From Oscillospiraceae bacterium (GTDB taxonomy: Bacteria > Bacillota > Clostridia > Oscillospirales > Acutalibacteraceae), in contig SVPP01000010.1 of the NCBI GenBank assembly GCA_015065765.1, positions 12,760-36,759 on the forward strand: a stretch of 24,000 nt of DNA. The letters run 5' to 3'. Both the position numbers and the translations under genes were made by a program. Below are positions 8,031 to 22,404 of the stretch, one piece after another (position 1 is the first letter of the stretch; the number at the start of each line of letters is the position of its first letter). The notes under the pieces are model-generated. The model did not search any database. It saw only the letters and a program-made list of their open reading frames with translations, and was not told the DNA's origin.

Positions 8031-8077
8031 TATAATAACAGCGTAGCCCCGAAATTCTGCATTCTTCACTCTGCATT
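8031..8077 (+). repeat. Intergenic repeat family B, copy 1 (TATAAT box plus CCCCGAAATTCTGCATTCTTCACTCTGCATT)
   Basis: It aligns with 14946-15000 and 22353-22404, all in the same orientation. Its right end overlaps the stop codon (8076-8078) of the minus-strand phosphoesterase gene. Confidence 0.7.
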
Positions 8078-8566: not shown

Positions 8567-8755
8567 ATGCAAAATAATTTTGACTCTTTTTTTAACGGCT
8601 CTGCATCAAAGGAAGATGTAGAAAAATATGTAAACAATAATTTATCACAGGAAGATAAAGAAAAAATCAAATCAGTCCTTGCCGATAAAAATAAGCTGAA
8701 CGAAATTTTATCAAGTCCCTTTGCTCAGGAACTGATGAAGAAGTTCAGAAAGTAA
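8567..8755 (+). CDS. Small hypothetical protein (62 aa from the ATG; the ORF track starts at GTG 8558)
   Basis: GAGGTG at 8555-8560 lies 6 nt before ATG 8567, which favours that start. The protein is charged and probably helical. It is the first of three tightly packed small ORFs. Confidence 0.45.
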   Translation: MQNNFDSFFNGSASKEDVEKYVNNNLSQEDKEKIKSVLADKNKLNEILSSPFAQELMKKFRK

Positions 8756-8758
8756 GCT

Positions 8759-9088
8759 ATGGATATGGATAACATCGGCGATATTATTTCCTCACTTAGC
8801 GAAGATGATATCGCATCATTGAAGCAGACCGCAGAAAGTCTTTTCGGCGGTGCAAAAGAAGAAAAAAAGAAGGACACAGGCTTTGATTTTTCAGGGATTG
8901 ACCCTCAGATGATAGGAAAAATCACAAGAATGATGAGCCTGCTCAATTCCTCTTCTTCAAGTCCACGTTGCGACCTGATACGGGCATTGAAGCCTCTTCT
9001 TTCTCAGGATAAAAGGAAACGTGCAGACGAGGCGATGCAGCTTATGAAAATGCTTGATATTCTGCCTCTGATACAAGAGCTGAGGTGA
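8759..9088 (+). CDS. Small hypothetical protein (109 aa)
   Basis: It starts 3 nt after the previous stop. It has an acidic N-terminus, a poly-Ser stretch and a C-terminal LIRALKPLLSQDKRKRADEAMQLMKMLDILPLI helix. I recognised no family. Confidence 0.45.
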   Translation: MDMDNIGDIISSLSEDDIASLKQTAESLFGGAKEEKKKDTGFDFSGIDPQMIGKITRMMSLLNSSSSSPRCDLIRALKPLLSQDKRKRADEAMQLMKMLDILPLIQELR

Positions 9089-9092
9089 TTAC

Positions 9093-9377
9093 ATGAAAGA
9101 TTTTTCCTACGACAACATAGAAAGAGCCTCTGAAGAAGCGTTCAGAATGCAGAAAGATTCACGTTTTTTCGACGAGGATTATGAGCCTTACAAATGTAAT
9201 TGCCGTTTTGAAAAGAACAGGGAAAAACCCCCTCTCCCTCAAAACGGCAAATGCTGTCATAAAAATCCTTTCGGAATTGACGATGATAAGCTTCTGATTC
9301 TCGCGCTCATTCTGATTCTGTCAAAAAATTCAGATGATAAGCTTCTGATGATGGCACTCTTATACATCATAATGTAA
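9093..9377 (+). CDS. Small hypothetical Cys-rich protein with a duplicated hydrophobic C-terminal motif (94 aa)
   Basis: A GAGGTG RBS precedes the ATG. It carries the Cys motifs YKCNCRF and GKCCHKNPF, then DDDKLLILALILIL and SDDKLLMMALLYII. Its 3' end overlaps the convergent ybaK by 11 nt. Confidence 0.45.
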   Translation: MKDFSYDNIERASEEAFRMQKDSRFFDEDYEPYKCNCRFEKNREKPPLPQNGKCCHKNPFGIDDDKLLILALILILSKNSDDKLLMMALLYIIM

Positions 9378-9837
9378 TAGGGCAGAATTTTCCGTTTACG
9401 AGCTTACATAAATCCTGAGGATTTATTTCCATCTGAAAACCAAGCTTGCCGGCACTGACATAAATTCTGTCAAAAATTTCAGCTGATGAATCAAAAACCG
9501 TCACATAATTCTTTTTCATACCAACGGGACTGCATCCACCGCGGATGTAGCCCGTTATTTTGTTGATATCCTTAACATGAATCATTGAAACTGACTTTTC
9601 ACCCACAGATGATGCTGCCTTTTTCAGGTCAAGCTCTTCTGCACCGGGAACTACAAAAACATAATAGTTTCCGCTTTTACCCTCAGTTACAAGTGTTTTG
9701 AAAACTCTTTCAATATCTGCTCCGATTTTCCCCGCAACAGTTACAGCATCAAGTGCTTCCTTGCATGGGTATGAGTGGAGAATGTAGTCAAATTTGGCAG
9801 TTTCAACAATTCTTATAGCGTTTGTTTTAACACTCAA
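9367..9837 (-). CDS. ybaK: Cys-tRNA(Pro)/Cys-tRNA(Cys) deacylase, YbaK/EbsC family
   Basis: 156 aa. Its N-terminus KTNAIRIV and the GGCSPVG motif match the family. The start is TTG at 9835-9837 with a CAGGAG RBS, overlapping the end of the GH78 gene by 11 nt. Confidence 0.8.
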   Translation of the reverse strand: MSVKTNAIRIVETAKFDYILHSYPCKEALDAVTVAGKIGADIERVFKTLVTEGKSGNYYVFVVPGAEELDLKKAASSVGEKSVSMIHVKDINKITGYIRGGCSPVGMKKNYVTVFDSSAEIFDRIYVSAGKLGFQMEINPQDLCKLVNGKFCPITL

Positions 9838-11983
9838 ACTTATGCACTCCTGCTCCTAAAGCATAAACTTCGTCACCAACATAAGCTGTTGCAGCCGCAC
9901 CCACAGGCACTGTGAATGTGTAGAGAATTTTTCCGTTTTCTCTCTTCCACTCAGATTTTACTTCGCCGTATGCAGTTTCAATTGATGCTTCCACGAAATC
10001 GATTCTCTCATCTGTTTCAGGCTTGAAGATGATATGCTTGAAACCAGGTGCATTTTCGTCAGTGTTTATACCTGCCATATTTCCGTACATCCAGTCTCCT
10101 ACTGCACCGTAAGCATAATGGTTGAATGAGTTCATGTCTGCTGACCACATTGAGCCGTCAGGCTTGATGCCGTCCCAGTGCTCCCAGATAGTTGTTGCAC
10201 CCTGAGTAACTGAGAAGAGCCATGAGGGATATTCCTCTCTGAGAAGAAGGTCGTAGGCAGTTTTTGTCTGACCGTTCTGAGAAAGAGCGTGAAGAAGATA
10301 AGGTGTACCCACAAAGCCTGTTGTCATATGACCAAATTCATTGATGATTGAGAGAAGCTGTTCTGTTACTGCTTCTTTATCATCACAAAGGTCAAAGAAA
10401 AGTGTAAGCACGCAAGCTGTCTGTGTGTTGCAGAGAAGCTTACCTTCGGGGAGATATTCCTTCATGTAGGCTGACTTGATATTTTCAAGATTCTGCTCGT
10501 ATTTCTCTACATCCTCACCGATAGCTTTACCTGCTTTCACCAGAAGAGATGTTGAATAATAGTAGTAAGCAGATGCAATAAGATTCATATCAGTTGAGCC
10601 TTTGTAGCTGCCTTCTTCTGCATCAAGACCAAGCCAGTCACCGAAGTGGTCTTCCTGAATCCACAGGTGATCAGTTGCAATTGAGTCAAGGTAATCCACC
10701 CATTTTTTCATTGAGGGATACTGAGTTTCAAGGATTTCCTTTTTGCCGTATGTAAGGTAAATCTGCCATGGACAGATTGTAGCCGCATCCGCCCATGCAG
10801 CACTTGATTGTGCATCTTTTCCTTCATCAAACCAGCCAAGGTCAGGAATAACGTGAGGCACTCTGCCGTCTGCACACTGGTCAGCAGCTAAGTCTTTCAG
10901 CCACTTTGAGAAGAATTTATAAACATCAAAGTTGTAGCTTGCAGTTTTCACAAAAACCTCAGCATCACCTGTCCAGCCAAGGCGTTCATCTCTCTGAGGA
11001 CAGTCTGTAGGAACATCAAGGAAGTTACCCATCTGACCCCAGATAATGTTGTGGTAAAGCTTATTGAGCATTTCACTTGATGAGTTGAAATAACCTGTTC
11101 TCTTAATGTCTGAATAAACTACAATAGCTGTAAAGTTTTCAAGGTTTATTTCATCTGTAAAGCCCTGAAGCCTGATATATCTGAAGCCCTGGAAGGTATA
11201 ATGGGGCTTGAAGGTATGCTCGTTTCCGTCGCAGATTACTCTGATTTCGTTCTTTGCAGCACGAAGGTTTTCAGTATAAAATTCTCCGTCCTTATCAAGA
11301 ACCTCGGCGTGAGTGATAACAAATTCGTCACCCGCATTCCCCTTGAACTTAAATTCAACGTAGCCTGTCAGATTCTGACCGAAGTCGATAACAGTGTCAC
11401 CTGAGGGAGTTGTAATAATTTCCTTTGCAGAAAGTCTCTCATGCTCACAGATTATTTCGCCTTCCTGAGGAATGAGAACAGACTTTTCTTCATCAGCAAC
11501 AACTGATGCTTTGCCCAGAACAGTGATTTCCTTTGTAGTGTCAAAGGTTTCACCGTTGTACATATGTGAGAAAAGAGTCTGTGAAGATGCATAATCCCAT
11601 GTGTCATCGGAAAGAATTTCTGTCTTTTCACCGTTTTCGCATTCGATTTCAATTGATGCAATAGCTTTTACTTCTTTGAAAGATTTGTCTTGCATCATCC
11701 AGCCTAAGCCCACACCGATTTCGATTTTATTCTCACCGTTTTTGAGCATAGCTGTAATATCATATGTCTGGTACTGAAGTCTCTTTTTGTAAACAGTCCA
11801 GCCGGGAGCGAGGACATAGTCGCTTACTCTCTTACCGTTTACATAAAGACAATAAACACCTTTTGATGTTACTGAAATTTCTGCTTTTACAGGGTCTGAA
11901 ACCTCAATAATTTTCGAAAAAACAGGTACAACATCGCCCATCGCTTTCCCTGCTTTAATCCAGTTTGCGTTCAGAATGCTCAT
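9827..11983 (-). CDS. Alpha-L-rhamnosidase (glycoside hydrolase family 78)
   Basis: 718 aa. It carries the GH78 hallmarks DCPQRDERLGWTGDAEVF and FRYIRLQGF, and an N-terminal Bac_rhamnosid_N-like region. Confidence 0.85.
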   Translation of the reverse strand: MSILNANWIKAGKAMGDVVPVFSKIIEVSDPVKAEISVTSKGVYCLYVNGKRVSDYVLAPGWTVYKKRLQYQTYDITAMLKNGENKIEIGVGLGWMMQDKSFKEVKAIASIEIECENGEKTEILSDDTWDYASSQTLFSHMYNGETFDTTKEITVLGKASVVADEEKSVLIPQEGEIICEHERLSAKEIITTPSGDTVIDFGQNLTGYVEFKFKGNAGDEFVITHAEVLDKDGEFYTENLRAAKNEIRVICDGNEHTFKPHYTFQGFRYIRLQGFTDEINLENFTAIVVYSDIKRTGYFNSSSEMLNKLYHNIIWGQMGNFLDVPTDCPQRDERLGWTGDAEVFVKTASYNFDVYKFFSKWLKDLAADQCADGRVPHVIPDLGWFDEGKDAQSSAAWADAATICPWQIYLTYGKKEILETQYPSMKKWVDYLDSIATDHLWIQEDHFGDWLGLDAEEGSYKGSTDMNLIASAYYYYSTSLLVKAGKAIGEDVEKYEQNLENIKSAYMKEYLPEGKLLCNTQTACVLTLFFDLCDDKEAVTEQLLSIINEFGHMTTGFVGTPYLLHALSQNGQTKTAYDLLLREEYPSWLFSVTQGATTIWEHWDGIKPDGSMWSADMNSFNHYAYGAVGDWMYGNMAGINTDENAPGFKHIIFKPETDERIDFVEASIETAYGEVKSEWKRENGKILYTFTVPVGAAATAYVGDEVYALGAGVHKFEC

Positions 11984-11985
11984 GA

Positions 11986-12447
11986 TTATTCCTCAATTCT
12001 TACTTTAAATACGATTTTTGTAACTTCCTCACCGCTGTCATCGACCTTCAGACAAGGCATGTGTGCGTCCTGAGGATAGAGCACAAGGAAATAACCTTCT
12101 TCAAGAAGACAGAGTGTTCCTGTTTCGCTTGTGTAGAAAGCGATATCTCCGCCGTCTTCAAAGGGTTTTGTAACTGTGCAGGTGTCAAGAGGAGTAACGC
12201 CGATATATTCCTTGCCCTTAAGCACAACCTGAACATCAGCATATTTTACGTGAGATTCATATTCTGCACCCTCATGATTCTTGGGAACATAAGTTGCAGG
12301 AGAAGCGAAAAGTCTGTCGCCGTCGAGGTCGATACGCTCCATTGACATTTCGCCTTTCATGTACTCGCCGAGAAAAGACTTGATTTCTTCAAGCTCGGGC
12401 ATCATTTTTACATAGTAGTTCATGTTTTTTAAAGTATCAAAAATCAT
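11986..12447 (-). CDS. YhcH/YjgK/YiaL (DUF386) family cupin protein
   Basis: I take the start as ATG 12445-12447 (MIFDTLKNMNYY...) with GGAGG 8 nt upstream. The longer track ORF (to 12534) would run through a promoter and a terminator. The stop abuts the GH78 start, so the two are probably one operon. Confidence 0.7.
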   Translation of the reverse strand: MIFDTLKNMNYYVKMMPELEEIKSFLGEYMKGEMSMERIDLDGDRLFASPATYVPKNHEGAEYESHVKYADVQVVLKGKEYIGVTPLDTCTVTKPFEDGGDIAFYTSETGTLCLLEEGYFLVLYPQDAHMPCLKVDDSGEEVTKIVFKVRIEE

Positions 12448-12475
12448 AAAAGCACCTCCAAATTTGCTTGATTTA

Positions 12476-12503
12476 ACTATATCACATTTACAGAAAATGT
12501 CAA
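12476..12503 (-). promoter_or_regulatory. Candidate strong sigma-A promoter for the DUF386-GH78 operon (TTGACA-16 nt-TGaTATAGT)
   Basis: On the minus strand, -35 TTGACA lies at 12498-12503 and -10 TATAGT at 12476-12481, preceded by an extended TG. It sits immediately downstream of the RT terminator. Confidence 0.5.
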
Positions 12504-12504
12504 G

Positions 12505-12529
12505 AAAAAAAGCCGCCTCTCGGGGCAGC
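12505..12529 (-). terminator. Rho-independent terminator downstream of the retron RT
   Basis: The minus-strand RNA reads GCUGCCCCGAGAGGCGGC, a GC-rich stem with one mismatch (12512-12529), followed by U7 (12505-11). It begins 22 nt after the RT stop. Confidence 0.55.
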
Positions 12530-12551
12530 TTCAATCAGACACTGACTACGG

Positions 12552-13607
12552 TTATGTTTTGTATCTGTCTTCCATAATTCTTTTGCGGGCTTCGGAAAAG
12601 AATCTGTTATCCGGCTCTATCTGCAGAACATAGCTCACTCTGCCCAGAATGCTCAGATAATATTTTTCCTCGTCAACCTGTCCGTCTGAAATAAATTCTT
12701 TGTTTTCCGTAAAAAGAACAGTGTTGACTATGCCGTGCTTGAGAACATAGTAAACCTCCTGACGGAGCTTTCTTTTGTAATCTGACGGCACAGACACCTT
12801 TTCATTGACGGTAAGACCCGTTACTGTCTGACGGTCAGAGCTTGTAATGAATCGGGTTTTCTTTTCATTTACCTCAAAGCCCATTTCCTCAAGAAGAGAT
12901 TTTGACTTTTTAAACACACCATACAAGGGCACATTCCCTGAAAATGTCAGGTCATCGCAATATCGGGTGTAGGAAACCCCTCTTTCCTTGCACCATGTAC
13001 CTATCAGCCTGTCAAACGACGCCATTACTATATTTGAAATTGCAGGTGAAGTTGGTGCTCCCTGAGGGAGAACATCGTCATTGCAGACAAGAGCTGTAAG
13101 CATCACCCCGATCTGACGGGGAAAATATTTTGTATTGAAAACAGCTGAATAAATTCTGTCAAAGCATATGGAGCTGAAAAAGTCTGTAATATCCATTTTC
13201 AGAAGATATTTCTTTCCGCAATGGACAGATGCATTATCATAAATTGTTTTCCTTTTCAGATAAGCGTAGGCGTACTCAGAAACGCTGTAGCAAGAAAGAA
13301 TTCTTCCGGCAATTACGCTCTGTATTCTCTTGAGCTTTGAAGACGGAATAATCAGCGTACGGATGTTTCCGTTTTTCTTAAGGATATTGACAGGTCTGTA
13401 GTGATTGTCAACAGTTTTCACAAGACTGAACAAATCCTTTCTTCCGATACCCAGCAGGTAAGCTAACTGATAAGTGTCGTACACAAAAGGAGTTTTACGC
13501 TCTGAAACATAATCCCCCACCATTCTGAAGGCCTCGGAAATGCCGAATTTTTCAACAAAATGCATGTCACTCTGTTCGAAGGATATATGACCTTTTGTTA
13601 TTTTCAT
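12552..13607 (-). CDS. ret: Retron-type reverse transcriptase
   Basis: 351 aa from ATG 13605-13607, with GGAG at 13617-13620 and a 9-nt spacer. RT motifs are LPQGAPTSP and YCDD (12951-12962). The retron-lineage hallmarks NAxxH (NASVH, 13221-13235) and VTG (RQTVTGLTVNEK, 12816-12824) are both present. There is no maturase/En or other extra domain. An msr-msd-like structured region lies directly upstream on the same strand. Confidence 0.9.
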   Translation of the reverse strand: MKITKGHISFEQSDMHFVEKFGISEAFRMVGDYVSERKTPFVYDTYQLAYLLGIGRKDLFSLVKTVDNHYRPVNILKKNGNIRTLIIPSSKLKRIQSVIAGRILSCYSVSEYAYAYLKRKTIYDNASVHCGKKYLLKMDITDFFSSICFDRIYSAVFNTKYFPRQIGVMLTALVCNDDVLPQGAPTSPAISNIVMASFDRLIGTWCKERGVSYTRYCDDLTFSGNVPLYGVFKKSKSLLEEMGFEVNEKKTRFITSSDRQTVTGLTVNEKVSVPSDYKRKLRQEVYYVLKHGIVNTVLFTENKEFISDGQVDEEKYYLSILGRVSYVLQIEPDNRFFSEARKRIMEDRYKT

Positions 13608-13631
13608 TTTCTGCATCTCCTTTTTATTTAA

Positions 13632-13646
13632 CATACCCCGACAACA
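13632..13646 (-). repeat. Retron inverted repeat, 3' arm (ret-proximal)
   Basis: It is the exact reverse complement of 13813-13827. Confidence 0.8.
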
Positions 13647-13812
13647 CAAAATGTCCGGTAATGAACGAAGACGAATTTCTAATCACGAAGTGATTTCTGA
13701 TTCGGCGTAGTGAAATTATCGGCAAGCGTTTTACTTGTAAAACGCAGTCCCGAGAAAAAATATACAAGACAGCGACTCGCTGCCCCTTCCTGCTTTTGGC
13801 GGGATTGTTCGC

Positions 13813-13827
13813 TGTTGTCGGGGTATG
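13813..13827 (-). repeat. Retron inverted repeat, 5' arm (start of msr)
   Basis: It is the exact reverse complement of 13632-13646. Confidence 0.8.
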
Positions 13828-13832
13828 GTTAA

Positions 13833-13838
13833 ATCATA
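13833..13838 (-). promoter_or_regulatory. Possible -10 box (TATGAT) for the retron transcript
   Basis: TATGAT on the minus strand lies 5-6 nt upstream of the 5' repeat arm, which would put the transcription start at the edge of the repeat. I found no convincing -35. Confidence 0.3.
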
Positions 13839-13870
13839 ACTTAAGCCATGGGGCAAAAACGGTACAGGCC

Positions 13871-13900
13871 AAAAAAAGCGACTGAAACCAGCCGCTTTTT
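13871..13900 (-). terminator. Rho-independent (bidirectional-looking) terminator downstream of the ChbG/YdjC gene
   Basis: The hairpin AGCGACTGAAACCAGCCGCT (13877-13896; 7 bp, one mismatch) is flanked by A7 (13871-13877) and T5 (13896-13900). It lies directly after the stop at 13903 and separates that gene from the retron. Confidence 0.5.
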
Positions 13901-13902
13901 AA

Positions 13903-14775
13903 CTATTTCTTCATTTCAATCATATCTCTGTATGAAATAAGTTCGATGCCGTGAGCATTAAGATGCTGTTCTGTTTTGGGGTCTTTCATAATCTGATATT
14001 CCCACACTCTGTCACGCCATCTTGCTGTAATACCCTTGATTTCGTCGCATTCAACAGAAGGATGAACGTAAGTTTCGCTGAAGCCTGCAGGAATATTCAC
14101 AAGGTCTTCAAGGAACATTTCGCGGTATCTCTCGTAGCTTGTTCTCATTTCGTCATTCCATTTGGGGAAGATGAGATAATCAGGCATAATAACATTATTC
14201 TTTTTGCCGAGATGGTCGCAAATCTTACAAGCAACTGCATAAAGGAAATAAGGTGTACCCTCGGGACATTCCTTTTTGAGAGGCTTTCTGCACATTCTGA
14301 ATGCATAACCAAGTTCACCGCAAAGCTTCATTGTCATGGGAAGAAGCTTGAAGTTACCGCCCTCAATGCCGTAAAGTGAACCCATATGGTTATCAAGATG
14401 TGAGGGTTTCATGCCCATGCTTTCGGCAAGTTTAACCTGCGCAAGAATTTCCTGTCTTGCCTCTTCAAGGTCTGCGTGTTTTGCGAAATCTTCACACTCA
14501 GGCCACATAAAACCTTTTTCGTTTTTAAGTGAAGGAAGGTCTGTAATGGGACCCCAGTTGTAACTGCCCCATTCGCTTGTAGTTGTAAGATGCACACCGA
14601 TTGCATACTGAGGATTGTCAATTGAGAACTGAACTGCCTCTTTTGCAAATTTACAGGGCATCATAATTGTTGAAGATTTAAGTCTGCCTGATTTGAAAAG
14701 GTCCATAACAGCCTCATTTGCCGCACCGCACATGCCGAAGTCATCGGCGTTTATAATAAGATATTTGTCTGCCAC
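13903..14775 (-). CDS. ChbG/YdjC family carbohydrate deacetylase
   Basis: 290 aa with the N-terminus YLIINADDFGMCGAANEAV characteristic of YdjC. The start is GTG at 14773-14775 with a GGGGAG RBS. Confidence 0.85.
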   Translation of the reverse strand: MADKYLIINADDFGMCGAANEAVMDLFKSGRLKSSTIMMPCKFAKEAVQFSIDNPQYAIGVHLTTTSEWGSYNWGPITDLPSLKNEKGFMWPECEDFAKHADLEEARQEILAQVKLAESMGMKPSHLDNHMGSLYGIEGGNFKLLPMTMKLCGELGYAFRMCRKPLKKECPEGTPYFLYAVACKICDHLGKKNNVIMPDYLIFPKWNDEMRTSYERYREMFLEDLVNIPAGFSETYVHPSVECDEIKGITARWRDRVWEYQIMKDPKTEQHLNAHGIELISYRDMIEMKK

Positions 14776-14896
14776 TTGTCATTTCTCCCCTATTTTGTAG
14801 TTGATAGATTGATTGTACCATATCATGTTAATAAATTAGTTAACAGATTGTTAATAATTTCAAAAAACACCGTGAGTTTTCATTATAATCTCAATT

Positions 14897-14928
14897 ACGG
14901 CTCGTCGGGGACGCCGAGCCCTACGATG
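14897..14928 (+). repeat. Intergenic repeat family A, copy 1 (GC-rich hairpin followed by CCCTACGA)
   Basis: The sequence ACGGCTCGTCGGGGACGCCGAGCCCTACGATG forms the stem GGCTCG/CGAGCC. It is related to 21797-21828 and, more loosely, to 21301-21330. Confidence 0.65.
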
Positions 14929-14945
14929 CCCGAATCGGTGCAATA

Positions 14946-15000
14946 TATAATTTGCGACGCAGTCCCGAAACTCTGCATTTTGCATTCTGCCTTCTGCACT
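14946..15000 (+). repeat. Intergenic repeat family B, copy 2
   Basis: The sequence TATAATTTGCGACGCAGTCCCGAAACTCTGCATTTTGCATTCTGCCTTCTGCACT aligns with copies at 8031-8077 and 22353-22404. Confidence 0.7.
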
Positions 15001-15036
15001 AAAAAATCCCCCGTCTGCCGGGACAGACGAGGGATT
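15001..15036 (-). terminator. Rho-independent terminator downstream of hydA
   Basis: The stem pairs AATCCC-c-CGTCTG (15005-15017) with CAGACG-a-GGGATT (15024-15036), 12 bp with one mismatch and a 6-nt loop. On the minus strand it is followed by U-rich sequence (complement of A6 at 15001-15006). It lies 12 nt after the hydA stop. Confidence 0.65.
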
Positions 15037-21854: not shown

Positions 21855-22329
21855 GGCTCCCTTGTGTAAAGGGAGCTGTCAGCCGTCAAGGCTGACTGAG
21901 GGATTGTTTAACAATTTTATCAATATATTCACAAACCCCTCTGAAATTCTGATTGACTTCATTATTCGGAATTCTTATTATTTTCAAACCATATTCTTCA
22001 AGATATTTGGTTCGTTCTTCATCTTTTTCCATACCGACAGTATCATAATGTTGAGAGCCGTCAATCTCTATAACAAGTTTTGCGGAAGCGGAATAAAAGT
22101 CTGCAATATATTTTCCAAGAACCTTTTGTCTTGAAAAACGAACAGGATAAGTTTTCAAGAAGTCATACCATAAATGCTTTTCTTCTTTTGTCATGTTTTT
22201 TCGAAGTGTTTTTGCAATAGGTACTATATTTCTATTATGTTTCCTATCCAACATAATGCTCCTTTTTTCTTCACAATCCCTCAGTCAAAAAACTTCGTTT
22301 TTCGACAGCTCCCTTTACACAAGGGAGCC
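21855..22329 (-). mobile_element. DUF559 endonuclease cassette bounded by structured terminal inverted repeats (MITE/homing-like; mobility not shown)
   Basis: The outer 26-mer GGCTCCCTTGTGTAAAGGGAGCTGTC (21855-21880) is exactly inverted at 22304-22329. The inner 13-mer GACTGAGGGATTG (21894-21906) is exactly inverted at 22274-22286. Between these modules each end carries a different small hairpin. Confidence 0.45.
21886..22254 (-). CDS. DUF559 (Vsr/restriction-endonuclease-like fold) domain protein
   Basis: 122 aa. The pattern ARKLRKNMTKEEKHLW...L...FRRQ, then DF.....L.IE.DG..H, then D..R...L...G is typical of DUF559, read here as AKTLRKNMTKEEKHLWYDFLK...FSRQKV...ADFYSASAKLVIEIDGSQH...DEERTKYLEEYGLKIIR. 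The last 7 codons and the stop lie inside the left inverted repeat. Confidence 0.8.
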   Translation of the reverse strand: MLDRKHNRNIVPIAKTLRKNMTKEEKHLWYDFLKTYPVRFSRQKVLGKYIADFYSASAKLVIEIDGSQHYDTVGMEKDEERTKYLEEYGLKIIRIPNNEVNQNFRGVCEYIDKIVKQSLSQP

Positions 22330-22352: not shown

Positions 22353-22404
22353 TATAATCGGCGAAGCCCCGAGATTCTGCATTTTGCATTCTGCACTCTG
22401 CATT
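22353..22404 (+). repeat. Intergenic repeat family B, copy 3
   Basis: The sequence TATAATCGGCGAAGCCCCGAGATTCTGCATTTTGCATTCTGCACTCTGCATT ends 3 nt before the stop of the minus-strand gene at 22408. Confidence 0.7.

Follow-up and report, generated by a model that had tools for sequence, protein, structure and literature searches.

A probable stand-alone Ec107-type retron with no linked effector in an Oscillospirales gut bacterium

The window (the whole 24-kb stretch of DNA analysed) most probably carries a stand-alone retron of the Ec107 type that has no effector in cis. Judged from its sequence, the locus is a working-looking retron of 1.4 kb in an Oscillospirales gut bacterium, where it occupies the intergenic space separating two unrelated genes of carbohydrate metabolism. 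The absence of a linked effector is real, because the neighbouring genes behave as bystanders, the retron shows no decay, and neither a conserved partner nor a conserved small peptide was found. It is also a property already published for the Ec107 clade (Mestre et al., 2020, PMC7736814; the 2026 SPIRE preprint, doi 10.64898/2026.05.14.725207; and Ec107 itself), so that the original prediction, which had seen new biology here, was right about the missing effector and overstated its novelty.

The general features of a retron are present, namely an RT with NAxxH, VTG and YxDD motifs and an adjacent structured ncRNA with a1/a2 repeats and a conserved G. The RT reading frame is open from 12552 to 13649; its likely start is the ATG at 13607, with GGAG at 13617-13620, and the resulting 351-aa protein is identical to the public gene call P0001. 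RVT_1 is its sole Pfam domain, and 72 retron RT models of PADLOC match it: the best is RT_Ec107-like (PDLC03739, E 7.5e-113, 375 bits) and the runner-up family is RT_III-A (E 4.7e-93, 310 bits). The profile alignment covers residues 15-280 of the Ec86 RT, and 4,544 homologues were retrieved. The translation contains NASVH, VTGLTVN and YTRYCDD; the residues invariant in 37 homologues are H in NAxxH, T and G in VTG, and Y and the two D in YCDD; the other motif residues are at least 90% conserved, and the Cys of YCDD (C220) is nearly invariant within the family. An AlphaFold model (pLDDT 91.6) superposes on whole retron RTs with no additional domain, and its top fold matches are retron RTs (target-normalised TM 0.74-0.80), in agreement with the minimal, unfused RT originally described. 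An extra enzyme domain was rejected: the N-terminal ~45 residues are modelled as a beta-hairpin and two helices, which is too small, and the fold search returned RTs only. A phage origin was also set aside, the matches being one unannotated 4.7-kb faecal 'Bacteriophage sp.' fragment at 50% identity and other phage RTs at 36% or less.

The RNA 5' of the RT gene (Table 1) has a span of 196 nt from a1 to a2. A17 and G18 of the RNA alignment are invariant, and G 13812 is the presumed branching G. The distance from the end of a2 is 16 nt to the RT frame's first ATG (13616) and 25 nt to the preferred start. In an alignment of 30 loci, 36 of the 43 base pairs show compensatory changes, and pairing holds in 94.7% of the cells, a figure that falls to 39-47% on sliding the partner. 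The predicted msDNA folds as DNA at -18.3 kcal/mol (z -3.2). A covariance model matches 5' of the RT in almost all loci tested, including Lachnospiraceae and three Proteobacteria; built from this clade, it gives weak scores (23-32 bits) at the Ec107-like loci of Pragia, Budvicia and Saezia. Rfam has no match in the window at the gathering threshold, and retron RNAs of Ec107-like type, including the published Ec107_like covariance model, are absent from that database. The likely promoter just 5' of a1 reads TATAAT at its -10 box in a relative that carries the retron at the same site (L097); the candidate in the window has no good -35 box, is weak against the consensus and was not called by a consensus scan. 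From this layout, a single transcript would start just 5' of a1, the a1/a2 stem would set the conserved G beside the template, and the RT would prime from the 2'-OH of G 13812 and copy the msd into a hairpin msDNA of ~100 nt; the factor acting on or with the RT-msDNA complex would not be encoded in cis.

Table 1. Features of the retron locus and its flanks, in window positions
Feature	Position	Strand	Remarks
DUF386/YhcH gene, 153 aa	11986..12447	-	bystander; Pfam E 3.7e-35; real start 12447
DUF386-GH78 operon promoter	12476..12503	-	TTGACA-16-TATAGT with TG, 11/12 consensus matches; outside the retron
Whole retron cassette	12508..13903	-	1,396 nt; no counterpart in retron-less L093 (blastn)
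Intrinsic terminator closing the cassette	12509..12532	-	hairpin and U-tract
Retron RT, unfused, 351 aa	12552..13607	-	NASVH (NAxxH), VTG and YCDD motifs; Pfam RVT_1
msr-msd ncRNA	13629..13830	-	one copy in the window; fold z -5.9; 161 bits with the covariance model
a2 inverted repeat TGTTGTCGGGGTATG	13632..13646	-	perfect 15-nt complement of a1
Predicted msDNA	13647..13754	+	~90-110 nt; long mismatched hairpin and short hairpin; extent by analogy with retrons
a1 inverted repeat CATACCCCGACAACA	13813..13827	-	followed by invariant AGC holding the presumed branching G at 13812
-10-like box TATGAT	13833..13838	-	just 5' of a1; likely retron promoter, inferred from sequence
Terminator after ydjC	13868..13903	-	hairpin and U-tract at the cassette's upstream edge; RNA fold -15.9 kcal/mol (z -3.6)
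YdjC-family gene, 290 aa	13903..14775	-	bystander; Pfam E 1.2e-52

The edges of the cassette come from a close relative (L093) with an empty ydjC/DUF386 junction, as the original prediction had suggested looking for. By blastn, homology to L093 stops at 13904 (the YdjC stop) and restarts at 12507 (the DUF386 -35 box), and in place of the cassette L093 has 370 unrelated nt, a dispersed repeat, between the two genes. This empty site was located through the closest GH78 homologues; a metagenome scan seeded with YdjC returned six loci, none of them syntenic. No target-site duplication was seen at the cassette edges by eye, and the covariance model found no retron remnant in L093, L095 or L096. Terminators bound the cassette on both sides and a second gene is absent inside. 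Both terminators had been foreseen, the one after the RT now being corrected from 12505-12529 and the one between YdjC and msr being placed slightly wider than 13871-13900; the latter was missing from the output of a consensus terminator scan and was seen by RNA folding. L093 has a different terminator sequence after ydjC, and where the closing terminator lies, L097 carries another hairpin with T8.

The genes on either side of the retron are bystanders, because L093 has the same order (hydrogenase-YdjC-DUF386-GH78) without a retron and because the DUF386 promoter is kept in three retron-less relatives (L093, L095 and L096), in each of which DUF386 adjoins GH78. Their identities as DUF386, YdjC and GH78 were borne out by Pfam, which found all four GH78 domains in the rhamnosidase, and the near-consensus DUF386 promoter was also recovered. 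An unrecognised partnership of the retron with the cupin or the YdjC deacetylase, as had been suggested, could draw on the fact that both in the window and in L097 these genes adjoin it on its own strand, but there is only a very remote chance of it given this synteny, the separate promoter of DUF386-GH78 and the insulation by terminators: neither family recurs beside 80 homologous RTs, neither product has a PADLOC match, and YdjC homologues elsewhere (46-72% identity) lack both RT and DUF386. More broadly, no effector is fused or adjacent to the RT, as originally stated, and retron-effector models of PADLOC match none of the 21 other proteins of the window. Close RT homologues do not consistently sit beside a known effector either, these models matching 1 of 143 nearest neighbours. 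No conserved neighbour emerged from BLAST clustering of genes up to four positions on each side in ~78 loci, the commonest neighbour Pfam occurring in 6/75 loci downstream and 4/68 upstream; the conserved-neighbour check proposed at the outset is thus negative across 80 loci, and no PRTase or winged-helix gene lies beside the window RT or the 80 homologues. Within 12552-13900 no ORF of at least 60 aa other than the RT occurs on either strand, also as predicted. An effector in the form of a tiny unannotated peptide encoded within the cassette is hardly credible: TTG-initiated ORFs of 41 and 47 aa do overlap msr-msd in the window, but across the 30 aligned RNAs such ORFs vary in frame, strand and position and none is conserved, three loci (the window within a1-a2 among them) have no ORF of at least 20 aa, the indels do not come in multiples of three, and the conservation of the RNA is accounted for by pairing covariation. 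Nor is there any room from the RT stop through the terminator to the DUF386 promoter.

The cassette has persisted at its site across a divergence of dS ~0.7-1.25, since L097 carries the retron at the same position. Between the window and L097 the RTs are 74% identical (dN 0.16, dS 1.25, omega 0.13) and the DUF386 proteins ~92% (dN 0.036, dS 0.72), while 189 of 198 nt of the RNA are identical (95.5%) where synonymous sites are largely saturated (dS 0.7-1.25). The RT is under purifying selection and the RNA under much stronger constraint, with no partner in cis. Rapid adaptive evolution of the RT was rejected: its omega and its dS, comparable to that of the flanks, point to relaxed or faster purifying evolution and not to positive selection. 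With the shared site, the low omega, the near-identical RNA and the 36/43 compensatory pairs, the retron does not appear to be decaying; where the original prediction had allowed for an effector-less or decaying element, the former stays viable and the latter fails.

In some relatives, a MoxR-like ATPase gene and a DUF2201 gene lie inside or beside the retron operon. This pair is found in 7-8 of 53 close-clade Oscillospirales loci: the order is RNA-AAA-DUF2201-RT in L034 and L098, where two tightly spaced genes between RNA and RT encode the ATPase (MoxR-like, AAA_3) and the DUF2201 protein (metallopeptidase/VWA), and AAA-DUF2201-RNA-RT in L101, L007 and L021; among the cultured species, Merdimmobilis hominis An559 (L009) also has the cassette joined to the pair. 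The pair stands without any RT in 4 of the 6 homologues sampled, so that its link to the retron is facultative and could reflect co-residence in an island. WYL genes lie within 10 kb in 15 of the 53 loci. WYL was rejected as a dedicated partner: in several loci it sits beside Thg1/AAA_33 modules or a DUF262-like gene (assigned from an N-terminal sequence motif), and it may mark a defence or RNA-repair island instead of the retron. Both the WYL genes and the MoxR-DUF2201 pair are absent from the window, and 34 of the 53 loci have neither within 10 kb; stand-alone cassettes form the majority and occupy scattered positions on the RT tree.

Two options of the original prediction remain, an effector in trans and an effector-less function. 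As relatives join the same cassette to variable modules (the MoxR-like AAA-DUF2201 pair, WYL regulators), we tentatively suggest that it could be a portable sensor unit working with a partner that lies elsewhere in this genome, unlinked to it. In a more specific and unlikely form of this proposal, stand-alone Ec107-like cassettes would be portable RT-msDNA sensors, and their trans partner in Oscillospirales would be a MoxR-type AAA+ ATPase with DUF2201 (SprT-like metallopeptidase and VWA), possibly under WYL regulators; if true, this would be an undescribed retron type, with the orphans explained as its trans-acting members. Alternatively, and with a real if lesser share of probability, the RT-msDNA might itself be the output, for example as a domesticated regulator or as a decoy or sponge for a DNA-binding protein of phage or host, with no toxin partner anywhere in the genome. 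Such a function is suggested by the many loci lacking both modules, by one-site inheritance that looks vertical and by the very strong RNA constraint; a domesticated, non-defence role is considered by Mestre et al. (2020, PMC7736814), who also report that most orphan-retron genomes lack homologues of known retron effectors, and Ec107 expression is induced by starvation (PMC6868368). Against it, characterised retrons couple RT-msDNA to an effector and no effector-free mechanism is known, L034 and L098 unite cassette and protein modules in one operon, and presence/absence polymorphism among close relatives (L093) suits an accessory trait better than a core one. It seems improbable that the locus is a recently orphaned remnant, which lost a linked module (MoxR-DUF2201 or a type III PRTase) and kept RT and RNA by inertia. 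The suggestion by Mestre et al. (2020, PMC7736814) that the Ec107 branch lost a PRTase-like partner, the accessory pair of some relatives and the RT_III-A models as second-best match would fit such a loss, but the low omega with every catalytic motif intact, the RNA identity over that range of dS, the compensatory changes and a stand-alone majority scattered over the tree all speak against it. Proof of a trans partner or of an effector-free mode would change the view of retrons as obligately tripartite. Mestre et al. (2020, PMC7736814) explicitly flag how effector-less Ec107-type retrons work as a question; for this, the locus offers precisely defined cassette ends, relatives that naturally have or lack the retron at one site, an RT and RNA under selection without a cis partner, and related cassettes joined to MoxR-DUF2201.

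Among described systems, no type-defining effector of the tripartite retrons (types I-XIII) is fused or adjacent here. Type II-A retrons (Sen2/St85) have their effector between msr-msd and RT; L034 and L098, with two genes in that position, share this genuine tripartite-retron layout, except that the genes are AAA_3 and DUF2201 instead of an NDT-like toxin, and the window has neither. Type III-A retrons (RT and PRTase-like protein, with or without a winged-helix protein) supply the next-best RT models and, according to Mestre et al. (2020, PMC7736814), have a common node with the Ec107 branch, whereas the window RT has no adjacent PRTase or winged-helix gene. For the Ec107 branch of RT clade 2, Mestre et al. 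(2020, PMC7736814) described stand-alone (msr-msd)-RT cassettes, and the SPIRE preprint (doi 10.64898/2026.05.14.725207) reports clade2_Ec107like (n=192), found in gut communities in which Bacillota dominate and lacking any recurrent accessory module. These retrons are host-associated, and RT and Ec107-like RNA are abundant among them. The locus, an RT with a retron RNA in a gut member of the Bacillota and without a recurrent module, resembles both, and our 80-locus survey agrees with their family-level result; unlike those surveys, which report no accessory association, we see WYL and MoxR-DUF2201 in an Oscillospirales subset. The closest counterpart is Retron-Eco5 (Ec107) of E. coli, likewise a minimal msr-msd with an unfused RT and no accessory ORF: RT-Eco5 has a YCDD core instead of YADD, and Ec107, which lacks hallmarks of a mobile element, stands in place of a short stretch of intergenic DNA flanked by housekeeping genes (PMC6868368). 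The window locus shares the YCDD core and the replacement of a short intergenic stretch, and has RT_Ec107-like as its closest RT profile and no recurrent neighbour. It differs in its host, a Gram-positive gut anaerobe of the Oscillospirales, and in its RT, which is 40-43% identical to proteobacterial relatives, ~30 aa longer and equipped with a clade-specific, conserved N-terminal segment of ~45 residues.

The cassette between the ydjC and DUF386 genes is a retron, as established by its RT motifs, PADLOC model matches, inverted repeat and covarying RNA structure. The RT carries the NAxxH (NASVH), VTG and YxDD (YCDD) motifs and matches 72 PADLOC retron RT models, with RT_Ec107-like at the top (E 7.5e-113, 375 bits) and RT_III-A next (310 bits); its YCDD catalytic core is common to Ec107, where this variant of the usual YADD was singled out by a retron review (PMC6868368). 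By sequence, the nearest solved structure is the Ec86 RT (query residues 37-299 covered), and an AlphaFold prediction (pLDDT 91.6) superposes on full-length retron RTs with target-normalised TM of 0.74-0.80, indicating a plain retron RT without added enzymatic domain. Every gene around the retron is on the minus strand. For the RT, the most probable start codon is ATG 13607, nine bases after a GGAG, giving a 351-aa protein identical to the public gene call; L097, a relative whose YdjC/DUF386 junction also carries a retron, uses the corresponding start for its RT.

Features of the retron locus and of related loci (L-numbers)
Feature	Location	Strand	Detail
GH78 rhamnosidase	9827-11983	-	Pfam
DUF386/YhcH protein	11986-12447	-	Pfam
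Promoter	12476-12503		TTGACA-16-TG-TATAGT
Hairpin and U-tract	12509-12532		
RT	between DUF386 and non-coding stretch	-	Pfam: RVT_1 only
Non-coding stretch	between RT and YdjC gene		250 nt
a2 inverted repeat	13632-13646		15 nt
a1 inverted repeat	13813-13827		15 nt
Hairpin and U-tract	about 13868-13903		directly after ydjC
YdjC-family protein	13903-14775	-	Pfam
AAA_3-DUF2201 pair	L034:7289-11047; L098:359-4181; L101:2892-6445		also L007, L009, L010, L021, L033, L041
WYL-AAA_3-DUF2201-Thg1 island	L102:1027-8777; L104:1674-8863; L101:1-1650		
WYL gene within 10 kb of RT	L003, L007, L008, L009, L014, L015, L017, L021, L035, L036, L037, L045, L051, L053, L054		

The structure enclosed by a1 and a2 folds far better than shuffles (z -5.9). 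Aligning the equivalent regions from 30 homologous loci yields a consensus of 43 pairs, 36 of them with compensatory double changes; paired cells reach 94.7%, falling to 39-47% on shifting the 3' partner one to three columns along, and none of 500 shuffles attained the observed values. The covariance model built from this alignment hits the window once, at 13629-13830 (161 bits), and also matches upstream of the RT in almost all related loci tested, including Lachnospiraceae and three Proteobacteria. An invariant AGC directly follows a1, and its G 13812 is, as in retrons generally, the presumed priming residue. The msDNA, if made, would be plus-strand sequence starting at 13647, with a predicted length of about 100 nt and a predicted fold of one long mismatched hairpin and one short hairpin. 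At one related locus (L041), a second strong match to the RNA model lies downstream of the RT (2027-2188, 93 bits), the expected upstream copy (686-830) scoring 64.6 bits; the RNA may have been duplicated here, or a tandem retron may begin at this point.

The original prediction, that the retron has no recognisable effector, fused or adjacent, is correct: RVT_1 is the sole Pfam domain of the RT, the ORF call finds no other ORF of at least 60 aa within 12552-13900, and the terminators and promoter it described are all present. Its suggestion that a neighbour might be an unrecognised partner does not hold. The contig of the closest GH78 homologue (L093, 91% identity) shares the window's gene order (hydrogenase, YdjC, DUF386, GH78, a YbaK-like tRNA-editing domain protein, and onward) without an RT, and supplies the empty junction that had been proposed as a check: nucleotide homology runs as far as the stop codon of YdjC (13904) and restarts at 12507, the -35 box of the promoter of DUF386, 370 unrelated bases standing where the window has 1,396, which gives the exact cassette boundaries. 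Three retron-less relatives (L093, L095 and L096) keep both the promoter and the ribosome-binding site of DUF386, YdjC is missing at this position in two of them, and YdjC homologues elsewhere (46-72% identity) adjoin neither DUF386 nor an RT; PADLOC models match neither protein. This amounts to sequence-based proof that DUF386 and YdjC are bystanders. The cassette replaces a short intergenic sequence, as does Ec107 itself, which has no mobility hallmarks (PMC6868368). The 370 bases (L093:6108-6477) belong to a dispersed family of short intergenic repeats that contain inverted repeats and resemble MITEs or REPs. Further copies lie at 14893-15006, 22358-22402 and 8041-8077 of the window; the one separating the hydrogenase gene from ydjC gives rise to a spurious 41-aa ORF. 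Three small adjacent ORFs (8567-9377, plus strand; 62, 109 and 94 aa; no Pfam family), opposite in strand to their neighbours, also keep their order in the three retron-less relatives.

The retron of L097 has an RT 74% identical to that of the window (nucleotide identity 75.0%, dN 0.16, dS 1.25, dN/dS 0.13), compared with a DUF386 nucleotide identity of 87.9% (dN 0.036, dS 0.72, dN/dS 0.05) and 189/198 identical positions (95.5%) in the msr-msd RNA, to which codon measures do not apply. This comparison points to probable vertical inheritance at this site and shows an RT under purifying selection, looser than that on the flanking genes, and an RNA under much stronger constraint than synonymous sites. 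With a YdjC dS of 0.57, L093 is roughly as near to the window as L097 is, so retron presence varies among close relatives. Between the window and L097, RT divergence peaks at 13308-13457 (residues about 51-115), with 46% amino-acid identity versus 80-94% in the catalytic core, a dN/dS still only about 0.16 and a cognate RNA nearly unchanged.

Among 4,544 RT homologues (E<=1e-20), the best 120 are all 325-452 aa with RVT_1 only. In 80 genome loci, mostly from gut Oscillospiraceae, Acutalibacteraceae and Ruminococcaceae, where ORFs were called and neighbours clustered, the proposed tabulation of neighbours reveals no widely recurring family. Pfam tallies of the nearest neighbour of at least 100 aa peak at 6/75 downstream (AraC regulators; BLAST clustering places a similarly positioned recurrent family in one syntenic Lachnospiraceae group) and at 4/68 upstream. 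A PADLOC retron-effector type occurs in just one of 143 nearest neighbours, so homologues do not consistently sit beside a known effector, and none occurs among the other 21 window proteins. The window does encode a 122-aa DUF559 protein (Vsr-like endonuclease domain; 21886-22254, minus strand) some 8 kb away from the retron; it does not belong to a retron effector type and probably accounts for a weak PADLOC mREase_II match (E 8.7e-8) tallied without a protein name.

The survey matches published family-level statements: clade2_Ec107like (n=192), host-associated and linked to Bacillota-dominated gut communities, lacks recurrent non-RT modules (SPIRE preprint, doi 10.64898/2026.05.14.725207), and Mestre et al. 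(PMC7736814) left open whether unknown effectors act in trans or function differs. The absence of a linked effector is thus a known property of the Ec107-like clade and not the new biology originally proposed; what this analysis adds is the exact boundaries, the empty site in a close relative, the bystander status of the neighbours and ongoing selection. Three of the five options offered fall away: the neighbour as partner, a very small peptide (the RNA region has no conserved small ORF) and a decaying retron, against which stand the low RT dN/dS, the RNA identity and the retron at the same site in L097. An orphaned remnant is accordingly improbable. We tentatively favour action of the RT-msDNA through an unlinked partner; its acting free of any effector is rather unlikely, and other explanations take up what is left. 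Ec107 was left out of the phage tests of Millman et al.

A MoxR-like AAA_3 ATPase paired with DUF2201 (DUF2201_N/DUF2201, a metallopeptidase-like and a VWA-like domain) recurs beside Ec107-like retrons. In seven loci the pair lies just ahead of the RT and shares its strand; in an eighth (L008) it is on the other strand, at a distance of about 5 kb. Two loci (L034 and L098) have the order RNA, AAA, DUF2201, RT with gaps of 6-14 nt, the layout of a true tripartite operon; in L101, L007 and L021 the pair is placed upstream of the RNA. Sampled from the DUF2201 side, two of six homologues adjoin an Ec107-like RT, two are accompanied instead by WYL, AAA_33 and Thg1 genes and two lack both (pair without RT in 4/6), so the link is recurrent but facultative. 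PADLOC does not include the pair, our literature search found no paper linking retrons to DUF2201, and of two papers pairing retrons with MoxR the only relevant one concerns diversity-generating retroelements. The window has no AAA_3, DUF2201 or WYL gene.

WYL-domain regulators (HTH-WYL, about 320-390 aa) lie within 10 kb of the RT in 15/53 close-clade loci, scattered over the RT tree, and in 0/29 distant-clade loci, a weak control because the WYL queries were drawn from the close clade. The WYL gene is immediately downstream of the retron on the same strand in four loci; in some it adjoins a DUF262-like gene (by sequence motif only) or Thg1/AAA_33 genes, so it may be a marker of an island and not of the retron itself. 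One recurring island has the gene order WYL, AAA_3, DUF2201, AAA_33 (kinase-like), Thg1/Thg1C, WYL-like, WYL-like, and resembles a module for RNA repair or conflict in which the retron is sometimes found. In L101, RtcB is encoded near this island.
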